The notes: generated by a model from the letters alone, not told the origin. DNA of 64,000 nt from Candidatus Altiarchaeota archaeon (GCA_043800255.1 JAZDNF010000003.1:32001-96000), one strand, 5' to 3'; shown: positions 21,094 through 42,605, counted from the stretch's first letter. Made by a program: numbers and translations.

Positions 21094-21420
21094 ATGAAAA
21101 AAATGCTGGCAATTGCAGCCCTGATGATGATATCAGGATTAGTTGCTGCACAGGCACCTGGAACATCAGCTGCGTCAGCAGCTGCTTCACTCGTCTGCGG
21201 CATACTGCAGAACGTGAAAGTATTCTTCGAGCTTGTGGCCGCCGGAATAGCTATTGTGATAATAGTTATCAACGGTATAAAGTGGATCGGCTCATCTGAC
21301 GACCCAGGAGCCAGAAAGCAAGCCAAAGAAGGCATCATACACGCAGTAGTCGGTCTGGTAATCGTGCTACTAGCTGTCGAGATTGTCGGTCTGGTAGTAT
21401 CAACCAACTGCCTGGCATAA
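21094..21420 (+). CDS. TrbC/VirB2-like pilin (probable major pilin)
   Basis: GAGGTGA SD, signal peptide, two TMs joined by GIKWIGSSDDPGARKQAK, terminal Cys pair. Confidence 0.8.
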   Translation: MKKMLAIAALMMISGLVAAQAPGTSAASAAASLVCGILQNVKVFFELVAAGIAIVIIVINGIKWIGSSDDPGARKQAKEGIIHAVVGLVIVLLAVEIVGLVVSTNCLA

Positions 21421-21434
21421 TCTAGCATGCCTCT

Positions 21435-21480
21435 TTTGCCCTAAGAGTCTAGGGCAAACTTATTCTTTTTTCAATTTTTT
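21435..21480 (+). terminator. Hairpin plus T-tract after the pilin gene
   Basis: TTTGCCCTA-agagtc-TAGGGCAAA followed by TTATTCTTTTTTCAATTTTTT. Confidence 0.7.
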
Positions 21481-21506
21481 AGCTGTTTCTCGTATATTCT
21501 AATGTC

Positions 21507-24500
21507 ATGAAACGCCTCCACGTGAGGAGAAAACTCCGGACTATTCTCGCGTCAGCCGTCCTCGCGCTGATACTCCTTGCGCAAAATGCGACCGCACTGC
21601 CGATACTCTTGCTTGCGCTGATTTTCATACCGCTCATAGGCACTGGGATAGGCATAGCAATCACAAAATGGCCTGCCGGCGCGAAGTTCCTCGGCTTCCT
21701 CCTGAACATCCCAATCAAACTGCTGGTAGACCTTATCGTAAGCATATTCGGTCCGTTCATCAGGCTGGTCCTGAACTACATAGAGGATGGGATAATCTAT
21801 AACCCGAAAATCTACCCCTTCGATGAGATATGCTTCGGCGGCCTGCCTACGCAGGGGTTCGTGTACGGCTGCGCTGTCGAGAACCTGATGAAGATGATGA
21901 TGAAGATTCTCGCGCCATTCTACACCCTCCTTTTGCTTCTGATAGGCATTTACATCATCTTCGTGTCGGTTGAGCCTCAGTCGAGGGCGCGCGCGAAGTC
22001 GGAGTTCAACAAGCTGCTCATAAGCATGCTGCTCGCGTCATCGGCTCCGGTGATATACCAGCTGCTTTTGGACATATCCCAGTCGATGACTGCTGCCGTG
22101 TTCGAAAATTCCACCACAAAGACGTCGGAGGCCATGGCTAGGGGGATTATTGTCGCCTTCGCCAATCCTTGGACGTTCGAGCTTGGCGCGTGGGTGGTCC
22201 TCTTCGGCCTTGTCTTGGTCATGGCGAGGCTGTTCTTTATCGTCCTCTTCGCGATACTCTTCCCGGTGTCCATATTCCTGTACTTTTTCGACTTTACGAG
22301 GGGTTTAGGCTCTAACATGATAAGGGCGACCATGTTCTTCATATTCCTCCAGGTTGTTCAGGCTCTGATATTCGTCATAACCGGGATTGCAGCGGCTGAG
22401 CAGGCGAGCGAGCTTCTCCGGGGTTTCATAGTCGCTGCAGGGCTTACTGGGATGGTGTTGGCTGGCATGCTCATGGCAGGCATCATGAAGTGGGCTGGAG
22501 GCTTCATGGCGATGGTCGGCACGTCTATGGCTGGGAGGGGGCAGATGGGCGGTGCGGTCATGCTGGGCGCAGGCCAGATTATGATGGGCGCGGGGCCTTC
22601 AGGCCTTGTCGGCGCCGGCGCCACCGCAGGTTATATGATGCCCAAGCAGCTGGAGCCTGGCATCAAGGGCGTGGGGAGGAAGGCGCTCGCAGGTTTGGGG
22701 GGCGCCGCAGGCCATCCGATACAGTCCATGTCAGACGGCATGCAGGAGGCTGGCGGAGGCGCTGCCGGCGTGATTAAAGGCTTCCAGAGGTGGGGCAGAA
22801 CCTACGTTGAAGGATACAAGGGGCGGTTCTCGACCAGGTACACTCAGGTTAGGGAGTCTATGGCAGGCGTCGGCTCAAAGTATGCTGGCGACCTTCCCAG
22901 CTCTGACAAGGTCAGCGAAGCCCTGAAGAGGAGCCAGCAGACCGGGAAAGGAACTGGAAAGGGGGGAACCCTCCCCTATGAGGAGACTTCAGGCCCTGGC
23001 GCGACAGCGGAGGAGAAAGAATTCCCGAGGACGCCGCCCGCCAGGCAGAAGAATTATGGGGCCGGCGCAACTGACGAGCATTCGTCCCTGGTCGCGAGTC
23101 ATACTAGCGGTGGCAGGATAGAGTCTGAGGGCGCATTCTCGAACTGGCCTATGGTTGCGCTGATGCAGTCTGGTTTCATGCCTCAGATGTTCTCATGGAT
23201 GTTCTGGGGTACAGGTAAGGACGAGTGGCGTGATAAGGAATATAAGAAGGGGTTCGGCAGGTGGAGTAAGGGAGTGTCTCTGAGGAAGGCTGCCAAGGAC
23301 ATGGTAAAGGCTGGGGAGGATATGATAGAGCAGAGCAGAAGCCTCAGCGTCGATGAGGCTTCCAAGATGAGAGATGAGGGTAGGAACCTCATAAGACAGG
23401 GTAGGAGGGCGAAGGCTAGGGGGTGGGTCGCAACCGGAGCGTCTGTTGTCATGCCTGCTTCCCCGTTCATACCAATCCGGGAGGCTGGCGCGATTATCGC
23501 AGGCACTGTCTCATTGTTCCTGCCTGAGACTGTGGGTTTGGGAGTTGGAGGGTTGGCGTTACAGCTTGGAGTCGGCGGTTTGAGCCTTGTCCCTGCCGCC
23601 GCAGGCTGGGCTTCTCGCGCGACCGGCTTCGGCGTTTCTCTCCTCGGCGGAAAGGGTGACACGCCGGAGGATATAGAAAGGAGGAGGATGCGCGTTGACA
23701 AGTGGGATGCCCGCGCTGACAGGATGAGAGAGTGGTCTAGGGCAACCAGAAGAGGGGGTGGGTGGGTTAGGGATAATGCAAAATTTCCGATGAGGAAGCC
23801 GTTCTACTGGGCCGCCCGGAAGATGACAGGTTTGAGCGTCAAACAGATATGGCATAGGAGCAACGTCGAGCAGGAATTCTTCAGGTCCATGTTCAAGTAC
23901 AGGCAGGCTAAAAAAGAACACCGCATGGCTAAAAAATCTGGTGACGCGGAGGCTGAGGCGAAGGCTGAGAAGAGAAAGGCAAGTGCTGAGGAGAGGGTTT
24001 TCAAGCTGTTGCGGAAGTCCTCCCGCGGGGATGAGTTCTGGGGCAAGGACGAGATTCATGACACGATGATACAGTCGAAGGTGGCGCAGTGGGCTCCGGA
24101 GCTGATGGACAAATACCTCGAAAGCGGCTCAGATTCGAGTTTGGACAAATACTTTGATGAGGAGACGTCTAAGAACACCGCCGACGCTGAGGGGGTAGGA
24201 TTCGACAAGAAGGAGTTGCCAGGCGCACAAGAGCGCCAGTTGCCAGGCGCACAAGAGCGTGATACATTTGAAGCTCTCCTCAAGGAGGGCGGTATTGGTG
24301 ACGCCGTCGGCAGCGAGGTTAACGCGCAGGTTGGGGGCGTCTTCAACAACGAGTCCGGAGGGGAGTGGGGCGGCTTTGAGCGCCTCACCGAGTTCAGGCC
24401 TGAGGATGTGCTGTATGGTCTGACAGAGGCTGACAGAGACGCTCAGGAGAAGGGGAAGAAGTCTCAGCAGGCTGACGCCTTGAGGCTGGCAGTCGGTCTA

Positions 24501-26756
24501 AACCAGCAGGTCAGAGCTGGGACGAAGGATAGGGACGGGAAAGAGATGGATAGGGATAAAGCTAAGGGAATAATGAAAAAGTTCAACTCGAACATTCAGA
24601 GCGAGGAAGAACAAGCTAAACGTCAGAATAGCCGGTTTTTGGAGAGGTATGCAGCTAAGACTGAGAACGTTACCGATACTATGGGCAGGTATTTGAATCA
24701 TAAGCTTGCGAGGAGGCATTGGGTTGCCGACAAGCAGAGGCTTCTCAAATACGGCAGCCCTAAGACGAGGGCTGATATTCTGAGATCAGTCCATGAAGAA
24801 GACCGGAAAACCATCGAAGAAAAGATTGCTAGAAAACACTGGGTTGGAATCGAAGCTCCGAAAATTCAGGAGATAAAATCGGGGGGAGACGCTGGGAAAA
24901 CTGTTTGGGATATGAAGGACGAAAAAATTAAAAAGAAACAGATTAGAACAGAGAAGGGAATTGATAAGTTCAAAGAGAGGAACATCAATTGGGATACTGG
25001 GACTGTTCGAGAGTTCGTGACGTTGGATCAGGAGGAGGCTGCTGTTGCGTTGCATTATGAGTGGGGTTTGGACGAGCGTACTGGCGCTGTCAGGTATAAT
25101 TTTCACATGATGCGGTCTGCTGACGGGCAGAACATGTACATGAACCAGGGGGATTATGCCAAGCTGATGCAGAGGGTAGAACACGAGGGCGGTAAAATAA
25201 GAGTCGAACATGTGACGGCAGACGACTTCGTGAAGATGCAGGAGACTGGGAGAGTAAGCGTGCAGAACCAGAAGACAGGACGCGTCGAATACTTCCTCGG
25301 GGAGGATGACGCCAACAAGTACGTAATATCCAACACAGGCATAATGGTCGTCGGCGCAGGAATAGCAGATGAAAAGATAACACGAAGAGAAGGAGAAACG
25401 GAAGAAGCCGCTCTAGTAAGAGCGGAAAGCAGAGCAGAAGCGCTTAGAAAAAATCGTGAGAAGGGTGCTTATCTGCGTGTGGATGATATTCAGACGTTGG
25501 AGAGGAAGTATGGTTTCAGCGGGGAGCAGGTTAACCGGTTGGTTGATGTTGTCGGTAGCATGAAAGAGAAGGTTGATGTTGTCGGCAGCATGAAAGAAGA
25601 ATATGGGCTGAACCCTAACACGAGAGTCGCATTCTATTACAATCCGTACGATATCAATCCGGCAACCACCAACGGACGCGACGCGATAGAGATTAACCTG
25701 GGGAGCAGGGTGTTCAACCCGGAGACAGACTACTGGGCTGGGCTGACTGACGAGGAGAAGTCGGCCAGAGTATTAGACCTCAGAGGCTCTAAAGACTTAG
25801 CAGGATGGAACGATCTCGAGGCAAAGAGGAGATGGGACCTCATGCAAACGTACAGCGCAGAGGACAGACAGGTGGTCATCGACAGTATCAGGAGTGTGAC
25901 TGGGAAGGAACTCTCACAGGAGGAGGCGGGCAGGGTACTCTATAACCGGAATGTCAGAGAAATCGGCGAAGGTGATGCGCAGGTTCTGTACAACAGGCAG
26001 CAGTGGTTGCAGAAGGCGAGCACCGAAGACCTGAGCAAGAGCATAGGAGGCGTAATATTCCACGAGGCAGCGCACATAAAACTGTTCACAGGAGCTTCAA
26101 TTAGCTCGGGGCAGATGATAGAAAACCAGCAGGACGTCTACGACGTCTTCATAGGGCCTGGCAAGGCCAGATCATTCATGCGGATGATAAACCCGTTCAG
26201 CAAGAGCAGGAAGATGGGGGCAGGGCAGACGCTGATGGGCGGCGACCGCGCTGAAATGCTAGGACAGCACAAACTGATAGGGAACCTCCCGGAAGTTACA
26301 GAGGAATTCAGGAAAATACTCGAGCGGAACAAAGTCAAAGTAAAAAGTGAAGTCATCGGGAACCTGTTCGGCGAAACCCTCAGCGACCAGATTGGAGGCA
26401 GGTCTGCGAAAGCGAGTGAACGTGAGGACTTTCACAGGCAGCAGATTGGCAAAGCAATAGAGGCTAAGATAGACAACTATGAGGACACGATAGCGTTAGC
26501 CACCAGAGGATACACTGACCCTGAGCTGATAAGGCAAAAGGCCAGCATGACGCTCACAAACAAGGACGCCGCAGAACTGGCCATGTACAGGAAGAGGGCT
26601 GAACTCCTCGGGAATAAAGAGCTGGCGGAGAGGATAGAAGAGCTGGCGAAAGCCACTCTATCAGAGGGGGAACGACGGCGGACATACGCCGGCGCATACG
26701 AAGCCCTAGACTACCTCACAGAGAATGTGAAATTTGAGAAGAGGGAAAATGCCTGA
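21507..26756 (+). CDS. Giant VirB6/TrbL-like membrane protein with a long soluble extension and C-terminal HExxH domain
   Basis: N-terminal multi-TM region (EPQSRARAK, FLYFFDFTRGLG), Gly/Ala-rich linker, charged region, VIFHEAAHIK at 26061. Confidence 0.65.
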   Translation: MKRLHVRRKLRTILASAVLALILLAQNATALPILLLALIFIPLIGTGIGIAITKWPAGAKFLGFLLNIPIKLLVDLIVSIFGPFIRLVLNYIEDGIIYNPKIYPFDEICFGGLPTQGFVYGCAVENLMKMMMKILAPFYTLLLLLIGIYIIFVSVEPQSRARAKSEFNKLLISMLLASSAPVIYQLLLDISQSMTAAVFENSTTKTSEAMARGIIVAFANPWTFELGAWVVLFGLVLVMARLFFIVLFAILFPVSIFLYFFDFTRGLGSNMIRATMFFIFLQVVQALIFVITGIAAAEQASELLRGFIVAAGLTGMVLAGMLMAGIMKWAGGFMAMVGTSMAGRGQMGGAVMLGAGQIMMGAGPSGLVGAGATAGYMMPKQLEPGIKGVGRKALAGLGGAAGHPIQSMSDGMQEAGGGAAGVIKGFQRWGRTYVEGYKGRFSTRYTQVRESMAGVGSKYAGDLPSSDKVSEALKRSQQTGKGTGKGGTLPYEETSGPGATAEEKEFPRTPPARQKNYGAGATDEHSSLVASHTSGGRIESEGAFSNWPMVALMQSGFMPQMFSWMFWGTGKDEWRDKEYKKGFGRWSKGVSLRKAAKDMVKAGEDMIEQSRSLSVDEASKMRDEGRNLIRQGRRAKARGWVATGASVVMPASPFIPIREAGAIIAGTVSLFLPETVGLGVGGLALQLGVGGLSLVPAAAGWASRATGFGVSLLGGKGDTPEDIERRRMRVDKWDARADRMREWSRATRRGGGWVRDNAKFPMRKPFYWAARKMTGLSVKQIWHRSNVEQEFFRSMFKYRQAKKEHRMAKKSGDAEAEAKAEKRKASAEERVFKLLRKSSRGDEFWGKDEIHDTMIQSKVAQWAPELMDKYLESGSDSSLDKYFDEETSKNTADAEGVGFDKKELPGAQERQLPGAQERDTFEALLKEGGIGDAVGSEVNAQVGGVFNNESGGEWGGFERLTEFRPEDVLYGLTEADRDAQEKGKKSQQADALRLAVGLNQQVRAGTKDRDGKEMDRDKAKGIMKKFNSNIQSEEEQAKRQNSRFLERYAAKTENVTDTMGRYLNHKLARRHWVADKQRLLKYGSPKTRADILRSVHEEDRKTIEEKIARKHWVGIEAPKIQEIKSGGDAGKTVWDMKDEKIKKKQIRTEKGIDKFKERNINWDTGTVREFVTLDQEEAAVALHYEWGLDERTGAVRYNFHMMRSADGQNMYMNQGDYAKLMQRVEHEGGKIRVEHVTADDFVKMQETGRVSVQNQKTGRVEYFLGEDDANKYVISNTGIMVVGAGIADEKITRREGETEEAALVRAESRAEALRKNREKGAYLRVDDIQTLERKYGFSGEQVNRLVDVVGSMKEKVDVVGSMKEEYGLNPNTRVAFYYNPYDINPATTNGRDAIEINLGSRVFNPETDYWAGLTDEEKSARVLDLRGSKDLAGWNDLEAKRRWDLMQTYSAEDRQVVIDSIRSVTGKELSQEEAGRVLYNRNVREIGEGDAQVLYNRQQWLQKASTEDLSKSIGGVIFHEAAHIKLFTGASISSGQMIENQQDVYDVFIGPGKARSFMRMINPFSKSRKMGAGQTLMGGDRAEMLGQHKLIGNLPEVTEEFRKILERNKVKVKSEVIGNLFGETLSDQIGGRSAKASEREDFHRQQIGKAIEAKIDNYEDTIALATRGYTDPELIRQKASMTLTNKDAAELAMYRKRAELLGNKELAERIEELAKATLSEGERRRTYAGAYEALDYLTENVKFEKRENA

Positions 26757-27273
26757 GAAGGATAAGATTGAGTTGAGCAGGAGGGAGCAGGGCATAGTCG
26801 AGAGGTTCAAGAGGAGCGCTGAGGAGATAAGCGAGATATACAGGGACGATCCCCGGACGGAGATAATGGATGCGATAATAGTTGCCAAACACGGCAGACA
26901 CGACTACGCCACGGAGAGGATCACGCCAGAGCCTTTATGGGATACGGTATTCGAGGAGAGGATATGCCCGGTCTCCAACACGCCGAAAGACATACTCAGA
27001 AACGAAATACACGGCAGGCTTAAATCAGAAGACAACAGGATAGTATGCGACAAGTGCAAATTCCAAGTGGATGAAAAGCTCTTCAACAGCGGGCGGGAAA
27101 GGAACAACAGAGAGAAAAAGTGGATGGAGGATGACGCTAGACTCTATGAGGAGCTGCAAAAACAGAGAATCCCAAAAGGGAGGATAGACGAGCTCAGGAC
27201 TATGGGCGAGGAGCAGGCGCTCACAGAACTCTCAAGAAAATACCCGGAAGAGGATGAAAAAGAAACTGGTTAG
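26734..27273 (+). CDS. Hypothetical protein with Cys motifs (possible Zn ribbon)
   Basis: ICPVS...VCDKC; overlaps both neighbouring genes; likely start MPEKDK at 26749. Confidence 0.55.
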   Translation: MRRGKMPEKDKIELSRREQGIVERFKRSAEEISEIYRDDPRTEIMDAIIVAKHGRHDYATERITPEPLWDTVFEERICPVSNTPKDILRNEIHGRLKSEDNRIVCDKCKFQVDEKLFNSGRERNNREKKWMEDDARLYEELQKQRIPKGRIDELRTMGEEQALTELSRKYPEEDEKETG

Positions 27274-29044
27274 TCTGGGGATGATAGCAGCGGCAGGATT
27301 GGTGAAAGCTGAGGAATCCTCAGGCTCCATCATGCAGTCCATCATGAACGCCATCATGGTGATACTCACTCCGTTGGTGAAATGGGGCTTCGACTTCATC
27401 GTCTGGATGATATCGATAAACCCGACAGTGTACTGCATGCCGAGCGAGATTGCGGCAGGGTGCAAGGTAAGCTTCGGCTTCGACAGGTTCTTCCCCTACT
27501 TCTTCGACCTCCTCATACCATTGTACATCGTAGCCTTCATGTTCACTGCGATATACTTCATAACTAAGACGACGAACGCCAGAAGCAGGGCCAGGGCAAA
27601 GGCGATGCTCTCGAAGCTGATACTCGGCATCATAATCATAGGCATGTCCCCCCTCATATACCAGGTCATGTTGGACATATCCGGGGGGCTGGTTAACTTC
27701 ATATACGAGAGTTCAGGCTTGGTGAACTTCGAAGACCTTAAGCAGAATGCGACAGCAGGCGGCGCACTCGCAGCATTGGCGGCCATAATCCTGACCTACC
27801 TGATAATAATCCCGGCGATAGCGATAGTAGCCTGCATCAGATACTTTATGGTGGTCACATTCGCCCTCGTATTCCCCCTCCTCCTGTTCTTGTACTTCTT
27901 CGACCTCACGAGAGGCTTCGGCAGAAAATGGCTGCGCCATGCGGTGGGGTGGATAATGGTGCCCCCGCTGCAGGCCCTCTTCCTTGTTCTCACCGTAGCG
28001 TCCATTGACAGCATAGGCCCGACATTGGACGGGACCCTCGGCTTCGCGCTAGTCGGGCCTCTCGTCGGGTTCTTCATGACAATAGCAGGCCTCCTGATGG
28101 TAGGGCTCGCGCCGCTGATGATAAACCATCTTATGAGCCTAGTCGGAGGCGGAGTCGTTGCAGTGGGGCTGGCGAGCAACACGCCATGGATTGCGGGAGT
28201 TGGAGGAGTCCTTGAAGGCAGAGGCAGCAAGGCGATGAACCTCACAAAATCTGTTCTAACAAGAGGCAGCCCGGCTGGCACAGGATTCTATGCGGCAATC
28301 AAAGGCGCGTCCGGAATCTACGGGGAAACAAGCGCTGGCGTGTCAGGCTTCGGCGCCTTAGGCGGGAAACGCAGGATAAGCCCGGATGGAGTGCAGGAGA
28401 CAAGACCAGTAGACCAGGGGACGATCGCCGAGCGGGGAGTGACTCCCAGCCGCAAGGAGATAGAGGAGACCGTCTCAAAGGAGGTTGATGCTGCGAAAAC
28501 CGGGGTCACGGCTGGAAGCGGGACCGTAACAACAGCAAGACGGTCTGATGAAGGCAAAACCAGCACAGGCAAAATACAGGTTGGAGGCGAGTGGATGAAC
28601 CCCAACATACAGGAGATGATAGCGATGGAAAGGTCGAGGCTGCAGCGCGCCGGAGAGACCCTGCCGGAGACGATAAAGGAAAGCTTCAAGGAGGAGCGTG
28701 AATACCACAGCAAACTCCAGGAAAGACTGAAAGCTATCAAAGCAGGCGGCGTCGAGACCGAGATTGCCGCGGACAAGACCCAACTCGAAAGGATGAGAGG
28801 AGCCGCAAAGGTTACAAAAGCAAGAGCCAAACAGAAGGCAGACTTAGACTTCGAACGCGCCAAGAAGGAGGTTGAAGGAGCGATAGAGGAGGACAAACAG
28901 AAGGAGGGCGCGGAGAAAGCCAGGAAAAGATCGAAGAAGGCTGTGGAAAAAACAATCAAGAAAGCGGTAGAGAATGAAGTGAGAAGGCAAACAAAAGCCG
29001 TCAAAACCGAGACGCAGAAGAGTAAAAAGGAGGGCGCAGAGTGA
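27254..29044 (+). CDS. Second VirB6/TrbL-like membrane protein with a charged coiled-coil tail
   Basis: TNARSRARAK and FLYFFDLTRGFG are shared with 21507-26756; about 7 TMs; K/E-rich C-terminus. Confidence 0.65.
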   Translation: MKKKLVSLGMIAAAGLVKAEESSGSIMQSIMNAIMVILTPLVKWGFDFIVWMISINPTVYCMPSEIAAGCKVSFGFDRFFPYFFDLLIPLYIVAFMFTAIYFITKTTNARSRARAKAMLSKLILGIIIIGMSPLIYQVMLDISGGLVNFIYESSGLVNFEDLKQNATAGGALAALAAIILTYLIIIPAIAIVACIRYFMVVTFALVFPLLLFLYFFDLTRGFGRKWLRHAVGWIMVPPLQALFLVLTVASIDSIGPTLDGTLGFALVGPLVGFFMTIAGLLMVGLAPLMINHLMSLVGGGVVAVGLASNTPWIAGVGGVLEGRGSKAMNLTKSVLTRGSPAGTGFYAAIKGASGIYGETSAGVSGFGALGGKRRISPDGVQETRPVDQGTIAERGVTPSRKEIEETVSKEVDAAKTGVTAGSGTVTTARRSDEGKTSTGKIQVGGEWMNPNIQEMIAMERSRLQRAGETLPETIKESFKEEREYHSKLQERLKAIKAGGVETEIAADKTQLERMRGAAKVTKARAKQKADLDFERAKKEVEGAIEEDKQKEGAEKARKRSKKAVEKTIKKAVENEVRRQTKAVKTETQKSKKEGAE

Positions 29045-30105
29045 GGGACAAGCAGAAGGAGAAGGAAGACGACAAAGAGCTCATAGGCCTCATAAAAAAA
29101 GGCTCGCAGATAAAGGCGCCTGAACAGGTGTGGCAGACGAAAGTCAGGAGAATAGACGCCTTCGGCGACTTCACGCAAGCATCACAGGAGAGCGGCGAAC
29201 CGTACACGGTCTCGGACGCGATGAAATCGGCCGAAAACTTGGTCAAAGAGCACGGCCTGAAACCCAACCAGGAGGTCACCATCATAACAGAGGACAAAGG
29301 CAAGAAAGTAGAGAAGAAGATGACATTAGAGCGCATGTCCAGCCTACGCAAAGGAGACAGCCTCTACAAGAAACTCAAAAAAGACGGCGGATGGGTGAAA
29401 TTCGGAGACGAAGGCCCGGACAAGGAAACAGTCAAAGCCGTCGTGGGAGGAACCCTCCTCAAAGCAGCAGGCATAATAGCGGAAAAAGTCGAGGAGGGCG
29501 AAATACCAGACTCCCAGAAGAAGAAGGCAGCTGAAGTGGTGGCAAAATGCATAAGAGAATGGGACAGCATACAAGACCAGGGACTGGACCAGACACGAGC
29601 AACAGAAGCCTTCGGCGCCCTCGGAATGACAGGAGGAAGCCCGGGCGGCGGAATCTACCAGCCCTTCTCACGCTACACCGTCGGAATACCCTGGGACTAC
29701 ATCGACACCCAAAGCAGGATAATGGCAGCCTGGTGGTTCGACAACGTCAAATGGAGAAGCCAATACTCGATAGTCGGAAAATACGTCTCACTGCCCTGGG
29801 CGATAACAAAATACGGCAAAAAAAACAAAAAGAAGAAAAAAAAATGGAAGAAAAAGGTCAGAAAATTCGAAAAAATGTTCGACCTATTCTACATCAACAT
29901 AGAAGACGTATTCGACCTCGACAACCTAAGCATATGGGACATATTCGAACTCGAAGACTACGGAAAAACAAAACCCACAGGAAAACAATACGAATCCATA
30001 AAAAAACTCATGAAAGAACAAGGCTACTTCAAAGAACAAGAAGCCATCAAAGCAGCAGAAATAACCAGAACACCCCAAACAAGCGACATATTCAAAAAAC
30101 CCTAA
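29041..30105 (+). CDS. Hypothetical protein with a poly-Lys tract
   Basis: GTG start overlaps the upstream stop after a GGAGG SD; KKNKKKKKKWKKKVRK. Confidence 0.6.
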   Translation: MRDKQKEKEDDKELIGLIKKGSQIKAPEQVWQTKVRRIDAFGDFTQASQESGEPYTVSDAMKSAENLVKEHGLKPNQEVTIITEDKGKKVEKKMTLERMSSLRKGDSLYKKLKKDGGWVKFGDEGPDKETVKAVVGGTLLKAAGIIAEKVEEGEIPDSQKKKAAEVVAKCIREWDSIQDQGLDQTRATEAFGALGMTGGSPGGGIYQPFSRYTVGIPWDYIDTQSRIMAAWWFDNVKWRSQYSIVGKYVSLPWAITKYGKKNKKKKKKWKKKVRKFEKMFDLFYINIEDVFDLDNLSIWDIFELEDYGKTKPTGKQYESIKKLMKEQGYFKEQEAIKAAEITRTPQTSDIFKKP

Positions 30106-31154: not shown

Positions 31155-31155
31155 T

Positions 31156-32247: not shown

Positions 32248-32250
32248 AAC

Positions 32251-33756: not shown

Positions 33757-33786
33757 CAATAGTATAAGAACAACGGCAGAATAAAT
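33739..33786 (-). promoter_or_regulatory. Duplicated promoter plus start region (copy at 35495-35542)
   Basis: 35 bp identical GGACTTGCGCTTCTGCATCAATAGTATAAGAACAA; TTTATT box ~24 nt before each ATG (leaderless-type). Confidence 0.7.
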
Positions 33787-33901
33787 GCCCCCAAAACAAT
33801 AAAACCCATATCCCCACAATCAAAATAAACTACGTACAATCATCCGATCGCTCATACTCGTTCACATCGGATAAATCGGCCACATCTTCTTCCTCAATTC
33901 T

Positions 33902-35512: not shown

Positions 35513-35807
35513 CAATAGTATAAGAACAAGGGCGGAATAAATAAGGTTTCTGGAGGATAGGATGGGATACTCGTTTTTTGGCGTGGTTTGCTGTCCGGGA
35601 TGGGAGGGCCTTTTGGCGGTTTTGGAGGTGCTAATAACTACTAATCACTACTAGATTAGTATTTAGAGTGAAGAGAGTCGGGGGATTAGATTCCGCAGCA
35701 GACTAAACGCTCTGGGTTAAGTGCGTGATTCGGGCGCGGACACAGCCCCACATGCGAACCGTATAGTGAAGGTTCTGGCTGTAAGGACAGTAGATGTCGG
35801 CTGGACA

Positions 35808-36584
35808 TCAGCCCTGCCGCACGCCCATTGGGTTGACGCCGATGCCTTCATCGATGAAGTACATGTGGTAGGGTTTGTCCTCTGTCTTCGTCAGGCGCAT
35901 CTTCTCTATGTACAGTCTCCGGCTGCCGTCGGGGCGCTTCTCCAAAAAGATGACGCCATCGCACTGGTACTCTGAGACTCCGTCAGTTGTTATGGTAAGG
36001 ACGTTCTCTATGGAAGGGTGAGCCTCTGCAATCCAGATTGAGGTGACTCCTAGGGATGAGACGTCCTTGATCAATGAGGTTATGTGCTCCCGCCTCACAT
36101 CCTCAGAAGTGAGGACGAAATCCCGCTCATCGCTTACCAGGGCAAGATCCTTGGAGGCGTTGCTCCTCAGCAGATACGCGGCGCCGGTGAGCATCGACAG
36201 AGAATCCACAGCCAAGACGGTGACGCCATCACGGACGTCAGATGATATCATCTCAATCAAAGAGCCCTGATCCTTGGTATAATCCTTCAAAGAGGCGAGC
36301 TTGAGAGACTTCCCGAAAATTTTGTCGATGTTCCAGCTGAAAGACTCCGCCTGCGCGACAAGCTTCTCAACAGACTCCTCAAAAGTCAGATAAAGACACT
36401 TCTCCCCTGCAGCCGCCATACACGTCAGCATCTGCAAAGCCATCACAGTCTTGCCAGTGCCAGCATAACCTGTGATCAACGCGGAAAAACCGCGGGGGAT
36501 GCCGCCGCCTATAAGAGGGTCCAACCCTGGGACTCCAGTCCCGATCCGCTCAACAGAAGATTTAGCCACAAGAGACCACCCCAA
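35808..36584 (-). CDS. KaiC/RAD55-like RecA-superfamily ATPase
   Basis: IGTGVPGLDPLIGGGIP, GYAGTGKT, LTFEES, AVDSLS, CDGVIFL, IEKMR. Confidence 0.88.
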   Translation of the reverse strand: MGWSLVAKSSVERIGTGVPGLDPLIGGGIPRGFSALITGYAGTGKTVMALQMLTCMAAAGEKCLYLTFEESVEKLVAQAESFSWNIDKIFGKSLKLASLKDYTKDQGSLIEMISSDVRDGVTVLAVDSLSMLTGAAYLLRSNASKDLALVSDERDFVLTSEDVRREHITSLIKDVSSLGVTSIWIAEAHPSIENVLTITTDGVSEYQCDGVIFLEKRPDGSRRLYIEKMRLTKTEDKPYHMYFIDEGIGVNPMGVRQG

Positions 36585-36643
36585 TGATAGATTACACGAC
36601 AGTATTTATATGATATATACGTGAACTCATAAATTAATACAAT

Positions 36644-37555
36644 ATGCCGTACGCGATACCAGCCAACGTAAAATACGAAGAACGGGTCATAGGGCCGTTC
36701 ACGCTGAAACAGTCCATCTTCGTAACCATCGGCGTCGGAATAAGCCTCTACGTTTACCTGGGGACGGAAATGCCGCTGATGGTGAAGATGACGATCATCT
36801 CGGTCGCCGGGCTCGCAACCATAGGGTTCGCGATGTTCGACCTCGACAGGAAGATAATGGACTACGTCTTCTTCTTCAGACAGCCTAAGACCACATCATG
36901 GCTGAACCCCGCCGCGAAAAAGCTGATGAACATAAAAAGCATACGAGCGGACATGGTCTTCCTAAAAGACGGCAACGCCCTCGGAGTCCTGAAAGTGAGG
37001 CCCATAAACTTCGGCATCATGAGCGACCAGGACAGGGACTCCGTCATATACGGTTTCCTCGAGTTCCTGAACAGCCTGAACTTCCCCATGCAGATTGTGA
37101 TGAGATCCGTCAACCTCGACCTGGAAGACTACCTCAGACACCTGAAAAGGAAGATAACGAAGAGAGACGACAGGATAGCCTTAGCATACTATGAACACTT
37201 CTCAGACTACCTGAGGAAGTACATAACGGAGAACAGGATAAACGACAGGCACTTCTACATTGTCGTTCCAGGAGAGAAGAAAGGCGACGAGAAGGGACGA
37301 CTGGACAGCCTCAGAAACAGATGCAACATCGTACAATCCAACCTAAGCCTGTCGGGAATAATCTCGGAGAGGATGAACACCCACCAGCTGATAAACTTTT
37401 ACAGCTCATACTTCACGGAAACCTTCGAGATACACGAGAGCTTCATAAGCCCGATAACAATGTACAGAAAGATGTGGACGGAATCCCCCAAGCAGATGGA
37501 AGAGAAGAGGGCGGCGGCCATGAAAAAGATGTCGGAGGCGAAACCGTCAGAATGA
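36644..37555 (+). CDS. PrgI/VirB3-like membrane protein fused to a VirB4 N-terminal-like domain
   Basis: IPANVKYEERVIGPFTLKQ (PrgI-like), 2 TMs, LKVRPINF...FLNSLNFPMQI, FYIVVP. Confidence 0.78.
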   Translation: MPYAIPANVKYEERVIGPFTLKQSIFVTIGVGISLYVYLGTEMPLMVKMTIISVAGLATIGFAMFDLDRKIMDYVFFFRQPKTTSWLNPAAKKLMNIKSIRADMVFLKDGNALGVLKVRPINFGIMSDQDRDSVIYGFLEFLNSLNFPMQIVMRSVNLDLEDYLRHLKRKITKRDDRIALAYYEHFSDYLRKYITENRINDRHFYIVVPGEKKGDEKGRLDSLRNRCNIVQSNLSLSGIISERMNTHQLINFYSSYFTETFEIHESFISPITMYRKMWTESPKQMEEKRAAAMKKMSEAKPSE

Positions 37556-39837
37556 ACCTGCCGTTCCTGAGCAAAAAGAAAAAGGAGGAGGGCAAGGAAG
37601 CCGCGGGAGAGAAATACAAGGAATACGAGGACAAGCTGATAGAATACCTGACAAGCCCGCCGATGATCATACAGCACCCGAAGGACATTCAGATAACCAA
37701 ATACCACCAGGTGATCACCGCGATAAACTATCCCCGGCTTGTCGACCCCGGATGGCTGACCAAGCTGATAGAACTGAACCTCGACTTCGACCTCAGCATA
37801 CACATCACACCATACTCCGTGGACTCGACGGTGAAGATGCTGGAAAACGAGATAAAAAAGCAGAAGACAGACCTCTACGCCCTTGAATCCGCAGGCAAGC
37901 TCATACCCCAGTCGCTCATACAGCAGCACCAGGACACGATGGCATTGCTCAACCTCGTCCAGGAGGGGACTGAGAAGATGTTCGACATGAGCCTCTGCAT
38001 AGACTCGAAAGCGTACACCAGCGAGGACCTTGAGAAGAACACCAAGGAGATAATGTCCACCATGAACTCCATACTCATAATACCGAAGATTCCCGCGCTG
38101 AGGATGATATCAGCCCTGAAGTCGACGCTGCCCATAGCCAACGACGAACTGCACATAACGAGGAACATCACATCATCGGCTGCCGCCGCATGCTTCCCCT
38201 TCGCTGTCACCTCGCTGGAACAGCACGCCTCAGGAATACTGATAGGATTCAACACGATAAACAGCATACCCATAATAATGGACCCCTTCGCCCTCAGCAA
38301 CCCCAACGTACTGGTCCTGGGAACGTCAGGAGGGGGGAAAAGCTTCGGGATAAAGCTGATAATGATGCGAGAGCTCATGGAAGGGCTTGACATAAACGTG
38401 ATAGACCCGCAGGGAGAGTACACTGGCCTGGTCGAGACCTTCGACGGGAACGTGATAAGGATAGCCCCTGACTCCACCAGCGTGATAAACCCGTTCGACC
38501 TCCTCGACCAGCCGTTGGACGAGAAGAAACTGTCCCTGTTGGCGTTCTTCAGAGTCCTACTGGGAGAGCTGACGCCGCAGCAGGCCGCCATACTGGACGA
38601 GGCCATAGAGCACGTTTATGAGGACAAAGGCATAACAATGGACCCAAAAGGCTGGAGCAACAAGCCGCCAACCATAGAGGACCTCTACAATGAGGTGCTC
38701 CCGTTGACGAGAAGCAGCAAGGAGGTCATCTACAAGCCTGCGATGGAAATCGTGAACAGGCTGAAAAGCTACGTCTTCGGGCCGATGAGATTCCTGAACC
38801 AGCACACCAAGATAGACTTGAACGCGAGGATGATATCCTTCGACATAAGGGACGCCCCAGAAGTCGGTAAGCCGACGCTCATGTACCTCATACTCGAATA
38901 CGTTTACACGCAGATGAAGAAGACCAAGAGGAGGAAGATGCTCGTCATCGACGAGGCCTGGACCGTACTATCCGCAGGGGAGGAGGCGGAATACGTCCTC
39001 AAGATAGTGAAAACGTGCAGAAAATTCAACCTCTCACTGTGCATCATAACCCAGGACGTCGAAGACGTCCTAACATCGAGGGCTGGGAGGGCAGTGCTGA
39101 CGAACACGGCGACAAAAATACTGCTTAAACAGGACGTCGCGGTAGTCGACCAGATCGTCGAACAGTTCAACCTCAACAAAGCCGAACAGCAGTATCTTGG
39201 AATCGCAACCATGGGAAGGGCGCTGCTGATAGCGGAAAACACCAGGATACCGATATACATACAAGCATCCCCGGATGAGTACATGCTGATAACCACGAAA
39301 CCTGATGAGATGCTGCAGAAACAGCAGATGGAGATAGTCCACCCCGAATCAACAGAACTTAAGACTGAATTCGACCTCAGCAAGAAGGTTCAGTTGAAAT
39401 CCCTCCTCTCCGACGAGCAGATAATGTTCCTGGAGAAGAGAGACTACGAGGAAGTCAGAGTGAACACCCTCGGAGGCTCAAGCGACCTCTTCCTCATAGT
39501 CAACGAGACCCAGGAGACGGACGAACACTTCGTACTCCAGACCCTCATCTACGAGGACATAAAAAAGTACACAGACCAGGTGCTCATACACCACACGAGG
39601 CTGCCGGACATCACATTCGAAGCCTCCGATGGGAGGATGATAGCGGTCGAAATAATAGCCGGGGTGGGAGCTAAAAGGGCTGTGGAGGAGCTGAAGACGA
39701 AGCACAACGTCCTCAAAAAATACGACGAATACTTCATCGTCTGCGACGATGCGACGGTCGTGAAGGAGTTTGCTGACAAGTACGGGGAAGTCATACCAAG
39801 GACAAACGTGCAAGGCAGGGCAGCATCCTACTTCTAG
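37552..39837 (+). CDS. virB4: VirB4-like type IV secretion/conjugation ATPase
   Basis: NPNVLVLGTSGGGKS (Walker A), VIDPQGEY, INPFD, LVIDEAW (Walker B), RKF...ITQ. ATG 37552 overlaps the upstream stop (ATGA). Confidence 0.9.
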   Translation: MNLPFLSKKKKEEGKEAAGEKYKEYEDKLIEYLTSPPMIIQHPKDIQITKYHQVITAINYPRLVDPGWLTKLIELNLDFDLSIHITPYSVDSTVKMLENEIKKQKTDLYALESAGKLIPQSLIQQHQDTMALLNLVQEGTEKMFDMSLCIDSKAYTSEDLEKNTKEIMSTMNSILIIPKIPALRMISALKSTLPIANDELHITRNITSSAAAACFPFAVTSLEQHASGILIGFNTINSIPIIMDPFALSNPNVLVLGTSGGGKSFGIKLIMMRELMEGLDINVIDPQGEYTGLVETFDGNVIRIAPDSTSVINPFDLLDQPLDEKKLSLLAFFRVLLGELTPQQAAILDEAIEHVYEDKGITMDPKGWSNKPPTIEDLYNEVLPLTRSSKEVIYKPAMEIVNRLKSYVFGPMRFLNQHTKIDLNARMISFDIRDAPEVGKPTLMYLILEYVYTQMKKTKRRKMLVIDEAWTVLSAGEEAEYVLKIVKTCRKFNLSLCIITQDVEDVLTSRAGRAVLTNTATKILLKQDVAVVDQIVEQFNLNKAEQQYLGIATMGRALLIAENTRIPIYIQASPDEYMLITTKPDEMLQKQQMEIVHPESTELKTEFDLSKKVQLKSLLSDEQIMFLEKRDYEEVRVNTLGGSSDLFLIVNETQETDEHFVLQTLIYEDIKKYTDQVLIHHTRLPDITFEASDGRMIAVEIIAGVGAKRAVEELKTKHNVLKKYDEYFIVCDDATVVKEFADKYGEVIPRTNVQGRAASYF

Positions 39838-39841
39838 CGGT

Positions 39842-39989
39842 TGTCAAGAACCGCCGGTGTGTCGGAGGCATCTGCCTCCGACACGCGCCCGAGCAAGGCT
39901 CGGCCGCGTCAGAGACCAGCGGCATGGGTTACATCAGCTAGATTCTTGACAGATGATTTCCACCATCAGTCAATAGACTGGTGGAAATC
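39842..39989. repeat. Structured intergenic element: 110-bp unit with TGTCAAGAA inverted ends and internal hairpins, plus an adjacent hairpin
   Basis: TGTCAAGAA (39842) / TTCTTGACA (39943); 12-bp stem GTGTCGGAGGCA-tc-TGCCTCCGACAC; CCGAGC-aag-GCTCGG; GATTTCCACCA...TGGTGGAAATC (39955-39989). Confidence 0.6.
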
Positions 39990-40024
39990 TTAGATTTATA
40001 GAACCAATTCAGATAGGTTATAAC

Positions 40025-42244
40025 ATGAACCGCCAGCTGGAACTTCTGCTCATAATCTCGACGCTCATATTGCTGTCAGCATCATCTAGCGCCCAACGAT
40101 GCTATGCGAGAGGGCCTCCCCGCCACCCTTTCGCAGACCAGATATCAGACTGTTATGAAGTGGGCGTCTGCTTCCCGGAGAATTATCTGATGACTATCTG
40201 GAGGTGTTCAGAATGCTCGCCAGACGTCTACTGCGCAGACTATGACATAGACTGGGTATGCAACGACGACCCATGCAAAGCCGGGGGCGCAACACCCTGC
40301 CAGTGGAAGGACGGATACTGCTACAACGAATGCGTAGCCTACGGAGCCGATGATGCAATATGCAGGAACAACAACTGCTGGATGGAATACGACGAAAGCT
40401 GCGACGGGTCAGCCTGCGGCGCATGCGGACCGAAACAGTGCGTGGAATGCAAAAAAGAGATAGAATGCAGGAACTATCTCTGCAAGGAAGACTGCGAAGC
40501 CAACCCGTGCAAGGCATCCAGCGGCAAGGTAGCTGGAGGATGCGTATGGGGTGTTGGAATGCTGGGTGAGGCATGCCTGACAGACTTGGACGGCGACAAG
40601 GTAGCAGACAACGAGGACAACTGCGTGACTATCGGAAATTCCAACCAGGAGAACCAGTACTGCGACAAACCTGGAGGAGACTGGAACACAAACAGGGACG
40701 CATGCGACGAGAACGGAGACCACTGCGACGACACCGACGGAGACGGGCTTTTTGACGCCACCGAAGACAACAACACAAACGGGTCATTCGACTGGGGCAT
40801 AGACATGTCCAACCCCATGGACATAGACACCAACGACAACTGCATCGGCGACGGCGTCGAATTCGGCTTCAACCCGATATTCGACCTCCTCAAGAAGATA
40901 GCTGTAGGAGCTGCTGTGACCATGCTAGCCTACCACGCCGCAAAGTGGATTATGTCCGAGAATCCCGCAGACAGGGACAACGCAAAAAAGTCGATAATCT
41001 ACACACTATTCGGGACCATACTGCTTGTCGGAGGCAACCAGATGGCAGTCTTCATACTTTCGGCAAACTGCCAGGGCGAGACGCCTGATAGAGGATACAC
41101 CTGCAATTGCACTCCGCCCTCGGGAACCGGAGGCACGGAGGGAAGCTGCCCGTTCGTCTACTCCTACGACGGAGAACGGTACTATTATGAGCATGAGTCG
41201 TTCCCCTATGCTGCGCTGAAGGCGCTGGAATACGAGACTTACGGCGCTCTGACCAACCTGAAAAGCGTGAACGGCTCCTACATCCTGAAGGTGACCGAGG
41301 AGCGGGACGAGGAATCCTACATCAACAGGTTAAAGCTTGACGTCATAGACTATGACGGCTATGGGATAATGCCAGACGTCCGGGGAAGAGTGCACACGGT
41401 AGGGGAGAGTATCAGCCCGCAATCGTGCGAGACGAAAGGCGGAGATGACTGCCTCGAAGATGTTAAGGGAGAGGACAATCTCTACTGGACCAGCAATCTG
41501 GAAGGGAAGGACCTGACAGCAAAGGAGAACTACAAGGACTATGTCATCCTTAACTTTGGAAAAAGAAGGGCAGATAACGTTAAACTCCTGGTAAGCATGA
41601 AAAGCACCATACTATTGGACAAGTGGGGGATAGCATTACAGTCAATAGGGAACTACAACGAACTGTCAGAGAAAATCCTCTCAGCGCCGATAATAGGCGA
41701 AAAATGGAAGGACAAAGTCTTTGAGGAGTCGATGATGCACGTTCAACTGTGGGACGGCGCAAAATGGGCGGAGCAGGAGAGGATAGGGGTTGGAAGGGAA
41801 GGATGGGTTCAGCTTCTGATACCGATCAATCTGAGCGGGTTGGACACGGACGAGATAACGGTGAGGCTGATAGCGCCGGCTGGGACGTACGAGGTCAACT
41901 CCGTCCACATTGACACGACACCTGATAGAAAGTACATGATGGAAGAGGCTGTGCCGTATGATGCTACCAGCTCGGGAGGCGAGGACATGCTTGCCGAGAT
42001 TGTATCAGACGACGGCGAATATGCGAACCTGAAGAAGGGAGAGCATGCGATCATAAGATACAGGAGCGTGCCGGAGGAGCAAGGATACTCCAGAGGTTAC
42101 GTCGTCAGTGCAAAGGGCTACTTTTATTTGACCAGAGTGAATAATATATCAGCAGTCGACACGATAAGGAACATTCCAGAATACCTGAGAATGGCTTTCG
42201 AAGAAGATTATGGTCCGAAATACCTCACGCCACGGGTTGTATAG
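40025..42244 (+). CDS. Large pilin-like protein with Cys-rich, Ca-binding (TSP3-like) and C-terminal beta domains
   Basis: Signal peptide, dense Cys repeats, DLDGDKVADNEDNC / DTDGDG, internal TM-AAKWIMSENPADRDNAKK-TM, SCPFVYSYDG domain. Confidence 0.72.
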   Translation: MNRQLELLLIISTLILLSASSSAQRCYARGPPRHPFADQISDCYEVGVCFPENYLMTIWRCSECSPDVYCADYDIDWVCNDDPCKAGGATPCQWKDGYCYNECVAYGADDAICRNNNCWMEYDESCDGSACGACGPKQCVECKKEIECRNYLCKEDCEANPCKASSGKVAGGCVWGVGMLGEACLTDLDGDKVADNEDNCVTIGNSNQENQYCDKPGGDWNTNRDACDENGDHCDDTDGDGLFDATEDNNTNGSFDWGIDMSNPMDIDTNDNCIGDGVEFGFNPIFDLLKKIAVGAAVTMLAYHAAKWIMSENPADRDNAKKSIIYTLFGTILLVGGNQMAVFILSANCQGETPDRGYTCNCTPPSGTGGTEGSCPFVYSYDGERYYYEHESFPYAALKALEYETYGALTNLKSVNGSYILKVTEERDEESYINRLKLDVIDYDGYGIMPDVRGRVHTVGESISPQSCETKGGDDCLEDVKGEDNLYWTSNLEGKDLTAKENYKDYVILNFGKRRADNVKLLVSMKSTILLDKWGIALQSIGNYNELSEKILSAPIIGEKWKDKVFEESMMHVQLWDGAKWAEQERIGVGREGWVQLLIPINLSGLDTDEITVRLIAPAGTYEVNSVHIDTTPDRKYMMEEAVPYDATSSGGEDMLAEIVSDDGEYANLKKGEHAIIRYRSVPEEQGYSRGYVVSAKGYFYLTRVNNISAVDTIRNIPEYLRMAFEEDYGPKYLTPRVV

Positions 42245-42605
42245 GATTTTACTGGCCTTTCAGGCTATAAGAAGGTACGGCAGGCTGCTTCTCGTGATAC
42301 CATTAGCGTTGAACGCCAGCGCAGGCGGCACTGACATGGCAGAATTGAACTCGCTGAATGAGGGCCTCGTCACAGTCGCCGCGGCATTGGGAGTCCTGAT
42401 GATATCCATACAAGGACTGAAGTGGGTGACATCTGACACCCCGCAGGACAGGGCTGACGCGAAAAAAGGCCTCGAATACATACTCATAGGGCTGCTGGTC
42501 GTCTACCTGGCAGGCGTGATAGTATGCGGCCTCTATGGGGTGGCACTATCCGCGTACAGCATAAGCTGCGTCATGAACGGCGTAGTCTGCGAATGCGACC
42601 CCTGA
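42210..42605 (+). CDS. TrbC/VirB2-like pilin
   Basis: GLKWVTSDTPQDRADAKKGLEYILIGL between two TMs; Cys-rich tail; start uncertain. Confidence 0.75.
   Translation: MVRNTSRHGLYRILLAFQAIRRYGRLLLVIPLALNASAGGTDMAELNSLNEGLVTVAAALGVLMISIQGLKWVTSDTPQDRADAKKGLEYILIGLLVVYLAGVIVCGLYGVALSAYSISCVMNGVVCECDP

Follow-up and report, generated by a model that had tools for sequence, protein, structure and literature searches.

What does a type IV secretion system (T4SS) without a relaxase move, and how has it come to sit on an archaeal chromosome? The question is raised by a locus at positions 21,094-42,605 of a 64,000-nucleotide stretch, here called the window, from an uncultured groundwater archaeon of the order Altiarchaeales (Candidatus Altiarchaeota archaeon, GCA_043800255.1, JAZDNF010000003.1:32001-96000). 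The window comes from contig C5 of a metagenome-assembled genome (G000) of 1.75 Mb in 17 contigs, 93% complete. The order is widespread in the subsurface and is known more for surface structures of other kinds. With confidence and doubt about evenly balanced, we read this locus as a minimal T4SS derived from single-membrane conjugation systems of the MPF_FATA type, fixed as a vertically inherited organelle that moves DNA. New in this analysis are the splitting of VirB3-VirB4 between two genes joined by an ATGA overlap, a nuclease-fold tail on VirB4, an HExxH motif on a giant VirB6-like protein, and the expansion of the pilins.

A conjugation-type machine on the chromosome

Open reading frame (ORF) calling and profile searches with Pfam and NCBIfam located every gene of the original prediction, which had been made by a model from the sequence alone, at its coordinates and on its strand. 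Genes for three VirB2-type pilins, two VirB6-like proteins, one PrgI/VirB3 protein and one VirB4 ATPase lie on the plus strand, on either side of a minus-strand block with two radical-SAM, two TPR and one KaiC-like gene; serS follows, as predicted. The three pilin domains, PrgI and VirB4 each exceed their curated Pfam cut-offs.

21094-21420, plus strand: VirB2-type pilin, 108 residues (PF18895, 51.3 bits, cut-off 26.6; PF04956 TrbC/VirB2, 31.1 bits, cut-off 27.9)
21507-26756, plus strand: giant VirB6-like protein, 1749 residues, paralogue of the 27254-29044 product (B6 profile, 326 bits)
26734-27273, plus strand: accessory soluble protein of no known family, 179 residues, overlapping the genes on both sides
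27254-29044, plus strand: VirB6-like protein, 596 residues (TrbL, 20.7 bits, below cut-off, and fold matches)
29041-30105, plus strand: accessory soluble protein of no known family, 354 residues
30102-36584, minus strand: inserted cassette, not part of the machine (from Pfam, GC content and synteny)
36644-37555, plus strand: PrgI/VirB3 membrane hairpin fused to the N-terminal, TrsD-like part of a split VirB4, 303 residues (PF12666, 29.4 bits, cut-off 27)
37552-39837, plus strand: VirB4 ATPase, 761 residues (conju_CD1110, 307.9 bits; 4ag5, E 1.3e-33)
39349-39837, plus strand: C-terminal tail of VirB4, last 162 residues, a small N-terminal subdomain followed by a predicted PD-(D/E)xK nuclease-fold core
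40025-42244, plus strand: giant pilin, 739 residues (PF18895, 32.8 bits, at residues 283-335)
42210-42605, plus strand: VirB2-type pilin, 131 residues (PF18895, 39.1 bits)

Among the markers of an MPF_FATA-like T4SS, a VirB4 ATPase, a PrgI/VirB3 gene beside it and VirB2-type pilins are present. VirB4, of which the genome contains a single copy, matches the TraG P-loop (96.4 bits) and AAA_10 (57.7 bits) families of Pfam, and its closest solved relative is the VirB4 C-terminal domain 4ag5. The best named NCBIfam model is that of the Firmicutes protein conju_CD1110 (E 1e-91), whose equivalog cut-off of 325 lies just above the score obtained; the VirB4_plasma model of mycoplasma integrative and conjugative elements (ICEs; Mbov_0397 family) follows with 245.5 bits over model positions 270-892, and TIGR00929 with 146 bits (E 1e-42), below its equivalog/subfamily cut-off. 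The 303-residue PrgI protein covers positions 21-277 of the same 894-position mycoplasma model (E 2.1e-16) and also matches TrsD (E 1.9e-5). Because the two proteins match consecutive parts of the Mbov_0397 model, their genes are a split, translationally coupled VirB3-VirB4, in which the 303-residue protein is VirB3 plus the N-terminal part of VirB4. That the two might be duplicates was considered and rejected, as BLASTP finds no similarity between them and NCBIfam places them on successive parts of one ancestral protein. Read directly, the sequence places the VirB4 gene start in an ATGA overlap with the PrgI gene, and 37552 is the most likely start rather than 37321. By annotation, a similar split, with a protein of ~260-295 residues directly before a VirB4 of ~600-650 residues, is found in Pontibacillus, Thermoanaerobacterium and a Mycoplasmatota plasmid, and fused PrgI-VirB4 forms of 1012-1099 residues occur elsewhere. 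Some VirB4 orthologues are already named VirB4 or TraC in public annotations, and the named proteins among the top VirB4 protein-search matches are all labelled Altiarchaeales or Altiarchaeota.

The two VirB6-like genes of the original prediction are present, though their assignment is weaker than that of the other components. Their products are paralogues (phmmer E 1.8e-25) and belong to a family with five members in this genome. TrbL falls short of its 25.9-bit cut-off against the 596-residue protein, and it matches six of the 28 VirB6-like family members at E <= 0.01, again below threshold. A signal peptide, a hairpin resembling that of pilins and additional helices make up the conserved core of the family; because of this hairpin, five of the 28 members give weak PF18895 matches. 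In the 596-residue protein, a polytopic domain (residues 1-345) precedes a charged tail, and an AlphaFold (AF2) model of this domain has a predicted local distance difference test score (pLDDT) of 84.2. The top six Foldseek matches of the model in the PDB are all R388 TrwI/VirB6 (best E 0.055), as are the top three found by VIA (Z 9.0-9.3, root-mean-square deviation (rmsd) about 6, 230-238 residues aligned). These matches are supportive, not decisive, of two predicted VirB6-like membrane platforms in the locus.

In the 1749-residue paralogue, a polytopic N-terminus (about residues 1-390) that includes the pilin-like hairpin gives way to a long charged region which, like the other long tails of the family, contains no cysteine. 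An HExxH motif (HEAAH, residue 1519) lies in a zincin-like domain at its C-terminus, and PF18895 and BSP peptidase both match the protein below threshold. Ten giant orthologues contain exactly one HExxH apiece, which in nine of them falls 174-254 residues before the C-terminus. After shuffling, an HExxH anywhere in the sequence turns up in 1.7-11% of trials, depending on the protein; the position window was set post hoc, and several of the sequences are close kin. Atlas leads for the domain are zinc proteases, effector proteases among them, with scores of 0.83-0.86, all below 0.9. Two further approaches were discarded: an alignment of the HExxH region of nine orthologues, at 12-18% identity and with the motif out of register, and a search of the PDB with a full-length VirB6-like profile, whose matches were solely low-complexity, to charged eukaryotic proteins.

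The remaining family members lie on other contigs. At C7:143820-151315 (locus L049, minus strand) a second VirB6-like pair encodes proteins of 1423 and 735 residues, the larger of which has a calcineurin-like phosphoesterase domain (23.9 bits, cut-off 21.5) at its C-terminus in place of HExxH. The start of the 1423-residue gene overlaps a 156-residue gene whose product has no Pfam match and an N-terminus that, by eye, resembles a type IV prepilin signal. At C8:158469-168552 (locus L051) a gene for a 2650-residue secreted protein without a Pfam match is followed, 4 nt later, by the fifth VirB6-like gene, encoding 708 residues with a weak helix-hairpin-helix match.

The pilins share a signal peptide and two hydrophobic helices; in the 108-residue pilin the hydropathy segments are 1-19, 41-59 and 84-102. 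There are 22 PF18895 matches in the genome at E <= 0.01, 18 of them above the cut-off, and a phmmer search with the first pilin recovers 17 ORFs, including an 11-gene tandem array. This expansion extends to relatives: of 41 genomes, 40 have between 2 and 30 PF18895 matches each. The array itself (C8:143884-147716, locus L050) comprises eleven tandem genes on one strand, encoding 95-137 residues each, all of the T4SS pilin family and distant from the lone VirB4; it could be a reservoir of alternative or variant pilins. In the 739-residue giant pilin, a signal peptide leads into an N-terminal domain rich in cysteine (29 within about 270 residues), which includes one TSP3-like repeat (TSP_3, 20.5 bits, below cut-off); a hairpin at about residues 283-345 and a 400-residue C-terminal domain follow. 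Leads for this last domain are unnamed Bacteroidota proteins (TM 0.81-0.83) and clusters with UnbV_ASPIC/FG-GAP (TM 0.68-0.70). Both extra domains would be extracellular if the topology is that of VirB2.

The two accessory proteins have no match in Pfam or NCBIfam. The 179-residue protein is kept at the equivalent position in four related loci (L024, L025, L035 and L041; tblastn E 1e-6 to 1e-24), and the 354-residue protein is conserved in L024 and L025 (E about 1e-36).

The nuclease-fold tail and the substrate of the machine

What, then, might such a machine move? One line of evidence on this is the tail of VirB4. On its own it has no match in Pfam, and a PDB sequence search returned nothing usable; the fold search alone resolved it. 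The AF2 model of the tail (pLDDT 91.6) retrieves NucS/EndoMS with Foldseek (E 4e-4), together with YaeQ, Card1 and VRR-NUC, while the VIA ranking is headed by the Can2 nuclease domain (Z 8.9, rmsd 2.9 over 108 aligned residues) and continues with restriction and nicking enzymes, VRR-NUC, Bax1, FokI and Hjc; most of the best 50 matches are nucleases of the PD-(D/E)xK fold. The model thus assigns the tail this fold, with an alpha-beta-beta-beta-alpha-beta core. Across 21 aligned tails (20 orthologues and one stand-alone paralogue) H60, D87 (in LPD), E101 and K118 are invariant and E59 is nearly so, and from the sequence we infer that the tail may be catalytically competent.

The tail is not confined to this locus. 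In a search of 1.84 billion proteins, a profile of the tail matches 429 cluster representatives (E <= 1e-3). They include many short proteins as well as VirB4 proteins named as Nanoarchaeota and Diapherotrites, and PrgI-VirB4 fusions of ~1000-1100 residues bear the tail too. One VirB4 relative with a nuclease-fold tail (P0003, 1426 residues) carries an intein with a LAGLIDADG domain within its ATPase. Plasmid-borne bacterial VirB4 relatives, at 26-31% identity over query residues 33-605, lack the tail: their matches stop near residue 605, before the last 160 residues, and two of 4610 records cover at least 80% of the query. Within the genome, a tail paralogue stands alone at C7:198017-198556, and a gap of 134 bp separates it from a divergent C5 cytosine methylase (PF00145, 201.9 bits), an arrangement like that of restriction-modification genes; this copy, the methylase and an integrase share a low-GC island, and the paralogue looks like a restriction enzyme. 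The island (C7:190000-200000, GC 0.41-0.46, in part L002), in which the only tyrosine integrase of the genome is found, also holds a small gene pair resembling, by eye, a toxin-antitoxin, and is probably an integrated defence island.

Two features, a nuclease-fold tail kept across orthologues and a paralogue of it that resembles a restriction enzyme, lead us to favour DNA as the substrate, a preference held with as much caution as conviction. The VirB6-like proteins and VirB3-VirB4 would form a membrane channel and motor, which would pull pilins from the membrane and polymerise a conjugative-type pilus, with the giant Cys-rich pilin as an adhesive or tip subunit. DNA would be moved across the envelope, either exported or imported as in Ced (Sulfolobales/Desulfurococcales) and Ted (Thermoproteales), which Beltran et al. 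describe as DNA-import systems (Beltran et al. 2023, PMC9905601). The PD-(D/E)xK tail on each VirB4 subunit would sit at the cytoplasmic mouth of the channel and nick or degrade DNA, replacing relaxase and coupling protein. No lytic transglycosylase, NlpC/P60 or M23 match is found within the locus, and the HExxH domain of the giant VirB6-like protein may replace the wall hydrolase that follows VirB4 in bacterial relatives. Paralogous VirB6-like proteins with a phosphoesterase domain or a weak helix-hairpin-helix match also speak for DNA handling. Tentatively, and with more doubt than belief, we extend this to the proposal that Altiarchaeales, and DPANN more widely, transfer DNA with a VirB4 motor that itself bears a DNA-cutting enzyme, free of relaxase and coupling protein.

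Several points weigh against a DNA-moving machine, or against parts of its description. The tail has no lysine at the canonical (D/E)xK place, two residues past E101; I, E, S or V stands there instead, and the invariant K118 belongs to the next helix. The VirB6 assignment depends on sub-threshold profiles and a helical-bundle fold match, and a designed helical repeat scores Z 8.7, close to the values for TrwI, which themselves lie under the ~13 advised for helical proteins. Bacterial DNA-transferring T4SS require a coupling protein, and none was found in this genome. The pilin expansion and the adhesin-like giant pilin fit a contact role at least as well, and the enzyme domains that vary at the C-termini of VirB6-like proteins could act as effectors that the machine delivers. 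Ted loci are described as accompanied by HerA, Rad50 or ParA genes (PMC9905601), and no gene for any of the three is found within our locus. DNA transfer, expression and a pilus are all predicted here from genes; the sequencing runs listed as containing 36600-42650 include no RNA run, and three DNA runs from one groundwater study contain small shares.

These points lead to the strongest alternative, which we regard as possible but doubtful: that the machine, domesticated as described, moves no DNA but serves cell-cell or cell-surface contact, in biofilm or symbiosis, by assembling pili or adhesive fibres or by protein delivery. In that case the nuclease-fold tail would regulate the machine, serve as a structural part, or keep foreign DNA from coming in through the channel. 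The expanded pilins suit such a role, with 17 pilin-like ORFs here and their array on C8, as do the Cys-rich, TSP3-like, adhesin-like domains of the giant pilin, the VirB6-like gene directly after that for the 2650-residue secreted protein, and the C-terminal enzyme domains that vary between HExxH, with its effector-protease leads below 0.9, and phosphoesterase. The genome searches that found no coupling protein or relaxase point the same way. There is precedent as well: in Saccharimonadia a chromosomal, relaxase-less T4SS is described as essential to epibiotic growth (PMC12102498), and such roles have been proposed for Patescibacteria and for nanohaloarchaeal VirB4 systems. Against this stand the retention, order-wide and in other DPANN, of an invariant metal-binding nuclease-fold domain, which is hard to account for without a nucleic-acid substrate, and the resemblance of its stand-alone paralogue to a restriction enzyme; moreover, Pfam and NCBIfam reveal no recognisable effector/immunity gene pairs in the locus. 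The original prediction had named cell contact or protein delivery as the role, a choice that our data do not specifically support, since the tail and its restriction-like paralogue favour DNA handling.

Vertical inheritance, an inserted cassette and the question of mobility

The second half of the question, how the machine came to sit on the chromosome, is addressed by its distribution. A VirB4 orthologue (E <= 1e-60) is present in 45 of the 61 genomes of the phylum, all of them within the order of the window (45 of 49, G000 included); the four order genomes without a match are 73-92% complete, and none of 12 genomes from two families outside the order, in other orders of the class, has one. 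VirB4 identity tracks taxonomy, at 65-77% within the family of the window and 55-65% in the largest other family. Compared with locus L025, VirB4 is 76.5% identical, and the adjacent seryl-tRNA synthetase (SerRS) and archaeosine tRNA-guanine transglycosylase (arcTGT) are 63.8% and 57.2% identical. In a quick maximum-likelihood tree, ten Altiarchaeales core VirB4 proteins form one clade with short branches (SH-aLRT 100) above a backbone that is not resolved. The tree comprises 37 chosen sequences (the window, nine of 24 related loci, 19 full-length proteins, six of 25 listed plasmid hits and two HerA outgroups), its alignment kept the tail columns, and it contains no Ced, Ted or Patescibacteria sequences.

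Gene order is likewise conserved. Among 12 related loci compared by tblastn, L024 and L025, the closest relatives, show the order giant VirB6-like, 179-residue protein, VirB6-like, 354-residue protein, PrgI, VirB4, giant pilin, pilins. In the window, housekeeping genes border the locus on both sides, with pelota, the PheRS beta chain and glycosyltransferases upstream and a methanogen-type SerRS (serS), CBS proteins, arcTGT and HMG-CoA reductase downstream. The genes serS, CBS and arcTGT also follow the locus in L025, CBS and arcTGT follow the pilins in L032, and CBS is found in L041; small ORFs beside the locus have no match, or a weak local one, in L025. An Altiarchaeum-type locus (L040) has no VirB6-like gene within 10 kb of VirB4 and speaks against contiguity throughout the order, so that contiguity is a trait of the window's side of it. 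The synteny comparison that the original prediction had proposed recovers the locus unbroken in the closest relatives, with serS/CBS/arcTGT neighbours shared across genera. Its description of a domesticated chromosomal machine rather than a mobile element agrees with the presence in 45 of 49 genomes, the taxonomy-tracking identity, the shared neighbours and the want of mobility genes.

The block that separates the two halves of the locus has a different history. It comprises the following genes, all identified with Pfam.

30102-31154 and 31156-32247, minus strand: two paralogous radical-SAM/SPASM enzymes
32251-33819 and 33902-35515, minus strand: two paralogous TPR/36-residue-repeat proteins
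35808-36584, minus strand: KaiC-like ATPase

At 30-34 kb its GC content is 0.39-0.46, against about 0.51-0.58 in the flanking T4SS genes. It is absent from this position in ten related loci that have a VirB6-like gene upstream of PrgI, where about 2.5-4 kb separate the starts of the VirB6-like and PrgI genes, as against 9.4 kb here; L025 has one unrelated 173-residue ORF at the site. The radical-SAM gene has no orthologue in the 48 other genomes of the order, the best matches being radical-SAM proteins of about 480 residues at 25-32% identity. This lack of orthologues and the low GC mark the radical-SAM/TPR/KaiC block as foreign DNA recently inserted into an operon, which it divides in two. 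The "cargo cassette" of the original prediction is thus borne out as a lineage-specific insertion. It falls between genes and leaves 59 bp upstream of the PrgI gene. The cassette could be a peptide-modification system. Its TPR proteins are predicted to be membrane-anchored and contain 108-nt (36-residue) repeats, and the 522-residue one ends in a Trp/Asp/Asn/His-rich tail (DNWDNWDNWDNHDYHW); a promoter-proximal 69 nt is duplicated at 88% identity. Fifteen KaiC-like ORFs in the genome match the cassette KaiC-like protein (the query included), one of them at 51125-51895 of the window.

Could the locus nevertheless be an ordinary ICE or integrated plasmid, whose integrase, relaxase or attachment (att) sites lie outside the region inspected? 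Its components are of the conjugation type, and their nearest named families come from Firmicutes and mycoplasma ICEs. In addition, nine genomes of the same family (G003, G004, G007, G012, G013, G016, G018, G019 and G020) bear a second VirB4 at 33-42% identity, often in ORFs of ~1100 residues and, in the one relative scanned (P0029, 1099 residues), fused to PrgI; because their distribution is sporadic, these second copies may be true mobile elements. An ICE would show an integrase and att sites at its borders, a patchy distribution and a variable site, none of which is seen at the core locus; it instead combines presence in nearly all genomes of the order and conserved housekeeping flanks with host-like composition (T4SS gene GC 0.51-0.58 against 0.47-0.52 for the contigs, at or slightly above the host).

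The search for mobility genes gives the same answer. Five relaxase families searched genome-wide (Relaxase PF03432, TrwC PF08751, Mob_Pre PF01076, MobA_MobL PF03389 and Rep_trans PF02486) give zero matches at E <= 0.01. No true VirD4/TraG coupling protein is found in the 93%-complete genome, where PF02534 scores below threshold and PF12696 (TraG-D_C) has no match. Apparent VirD4 matches to PF02534 were rejected, as they cover profile positions about 44-85, the Walker-A region, in HerA helicases of ~510 residues; the family exceeds its cut-off in 34 of 41 genomes, always at these positions, and the two HerA helicases of our genome, on contigs C9 and C14, have HAS-barrel, DUF87 and HerA_C domains. 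The single tyrosine recombinase/integrase (PF00589) of the genome is on contig C7, not near the locus. The window contains no tRNA gene, and around the locus or cassette there are no convincing att-like repeats, the best candidates being imperfect 25-27-nt direct repeats of 74-80% identity. ARAGORN finds merely 6 tRNA genes in the whole 1.75-Mb genome and zero on contig C5, for which intron-containing or split tRNAs, or assembly gaps, are possible causes. The original prediction had seen no relaxase, VirD4, integrase or att repeats and had named a relaxase, integrase and att sites at the flanks as the sign of an ordinary ICE; the wider searches are in keeping with it. The missing relaxase is itself a weak argument in archaea and carries little weight there, because archaeal conjugative plasmids are also described as lacking recognisable relaxases (PMC9905601). 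Taken with the order-wide distribution, the evidence makes a mobile element highly improbable. Even less probable is a decaying, functionless remnant of an ancient integrated element, for although the operon tolerates a 6.5-kb foreign insertion between its halves, that insertion is intergenic, every ORF is intact, those of 1749, 761 and 739 residues included, and VirB4 is more conserved than SerRS and arcTGT.

Relation to known systems and biological meaning

The preferred reading, a fixed and vertically inherited DNA-moving organelle, finds its closest archaeal parallels in Ced and Ted. These too are chromosomal, domesticated derivatives of archaeal conjugative T4SS, with a VirB2-like pilin, a VirB6-like channel, a VirB4-like ATPase and no relaxase. 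The PrgI/VirB3 gene, the nuclease-fold tail of VirB4, the giant VirB6-like proteins and the many pilin paralogues are, in contrast, features of the present system, and the Ted-type neighbours HerA, Rad50 and ParA are missing from its locus. The Altiarchaeales VirB4 is not of the CedB type: the CedB model (NF041017) scores 52.3 bits against a cut-off of 700 and CedD 61.1 against 600, compared with 307.9 for CD1110. No NCBIfam match to Ced membrane proteins was found at E <= 0.01, although the CedA, CedA1 and CedA2 models are perhaps not in the library. By sequence, the locus appears nearer to the conjugation genes of monoderm bacteria than to Ced. The hosts also differ, those of Ced/Ted being hyperthermophiles and the present one belonging to a mesophilic groundwater lineage whose system is known from genes alone.

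The MPF_FATA systems of monoderms, both CD1110/Tn916-type and the mycoplasma ICE (Mbov_0395/0397), provide the best named profiles for VirB4, the split N-terminal protein and the pilins. They reside on plasmids and ICEs and have a VirB4 without the nuclease tail, whereas the Altiarchaeales locus is chromosomal and has it. Six MPF_FATA plasmid loci were examined; a coupling protein follows VirB4 in Embleya, and wall hydrolases (M23, NlpC/P60) come after it in Pontibacillus and Paenibacillus. The T4SS of Patescibacteria (Quinonero-Coronel et al. 2025, PMC12102498), compared here by its published description, shares VirB4, PrgI/VirB3, a VirB6-like protein and PF18895/VirB2-like pilins, along with MPF_FATA affinity, a chromosomal, lineage-wide occurrence and loss of the relaxase. 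Its hosts are bacterial rather than archaeal, and the account of the apparatus in that paper reports no nuclease domain; the archaeal VirB4 references used there number 12, from Ced, Ted and plasmids. Within DPANN, Nanoarchaeota and Diapherotrites share the nuclease-fold tail on VirB4 and the theme of pilin, channel and single motor, and giant nanohaloarchaeal proteins with VirB4-like domains have been discussed (PMC10266531). The Altiarchaeales differ in having an order-wide core set with fixed synteny, a split VirB3/VirB4 and expanded, dispersed families of pilins and VirB6-like proteins. Our literature search found no paper linking Altiarchaeota with VirB4 and, among the DPANN papers listed, none describing a system of this type.

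How substrates are processed without a relaxase in archaeal conjugation machines is raised as an open question by Beltran et al. (2023, PMC9905601). The motor-fused nuclease-fold domain, order-wide and common to other DPANN, offers a concrete candidate for relaxase-free DNA preparation, and, with Ced/Ted and Patescibacteria as the first two, the locus would add a third independent instance in which a conjugation apparatus has become a core organelle of the cell. The expansion of the pilin and VirB6-like families suggests a single motor behind several surface assemblies, and a shared motor would bear on attachment, biofilm formation and gene exchange in these uncultured cells. If the wider proposal of a motor that bears its own DNA-cutting enzyme is true, such a VirB4 would explain how relaxase-less archaeal T4SS process their substrate, and a whole uncultured order would be naturally competent or conjugative by means of a core chromosomal organelle.

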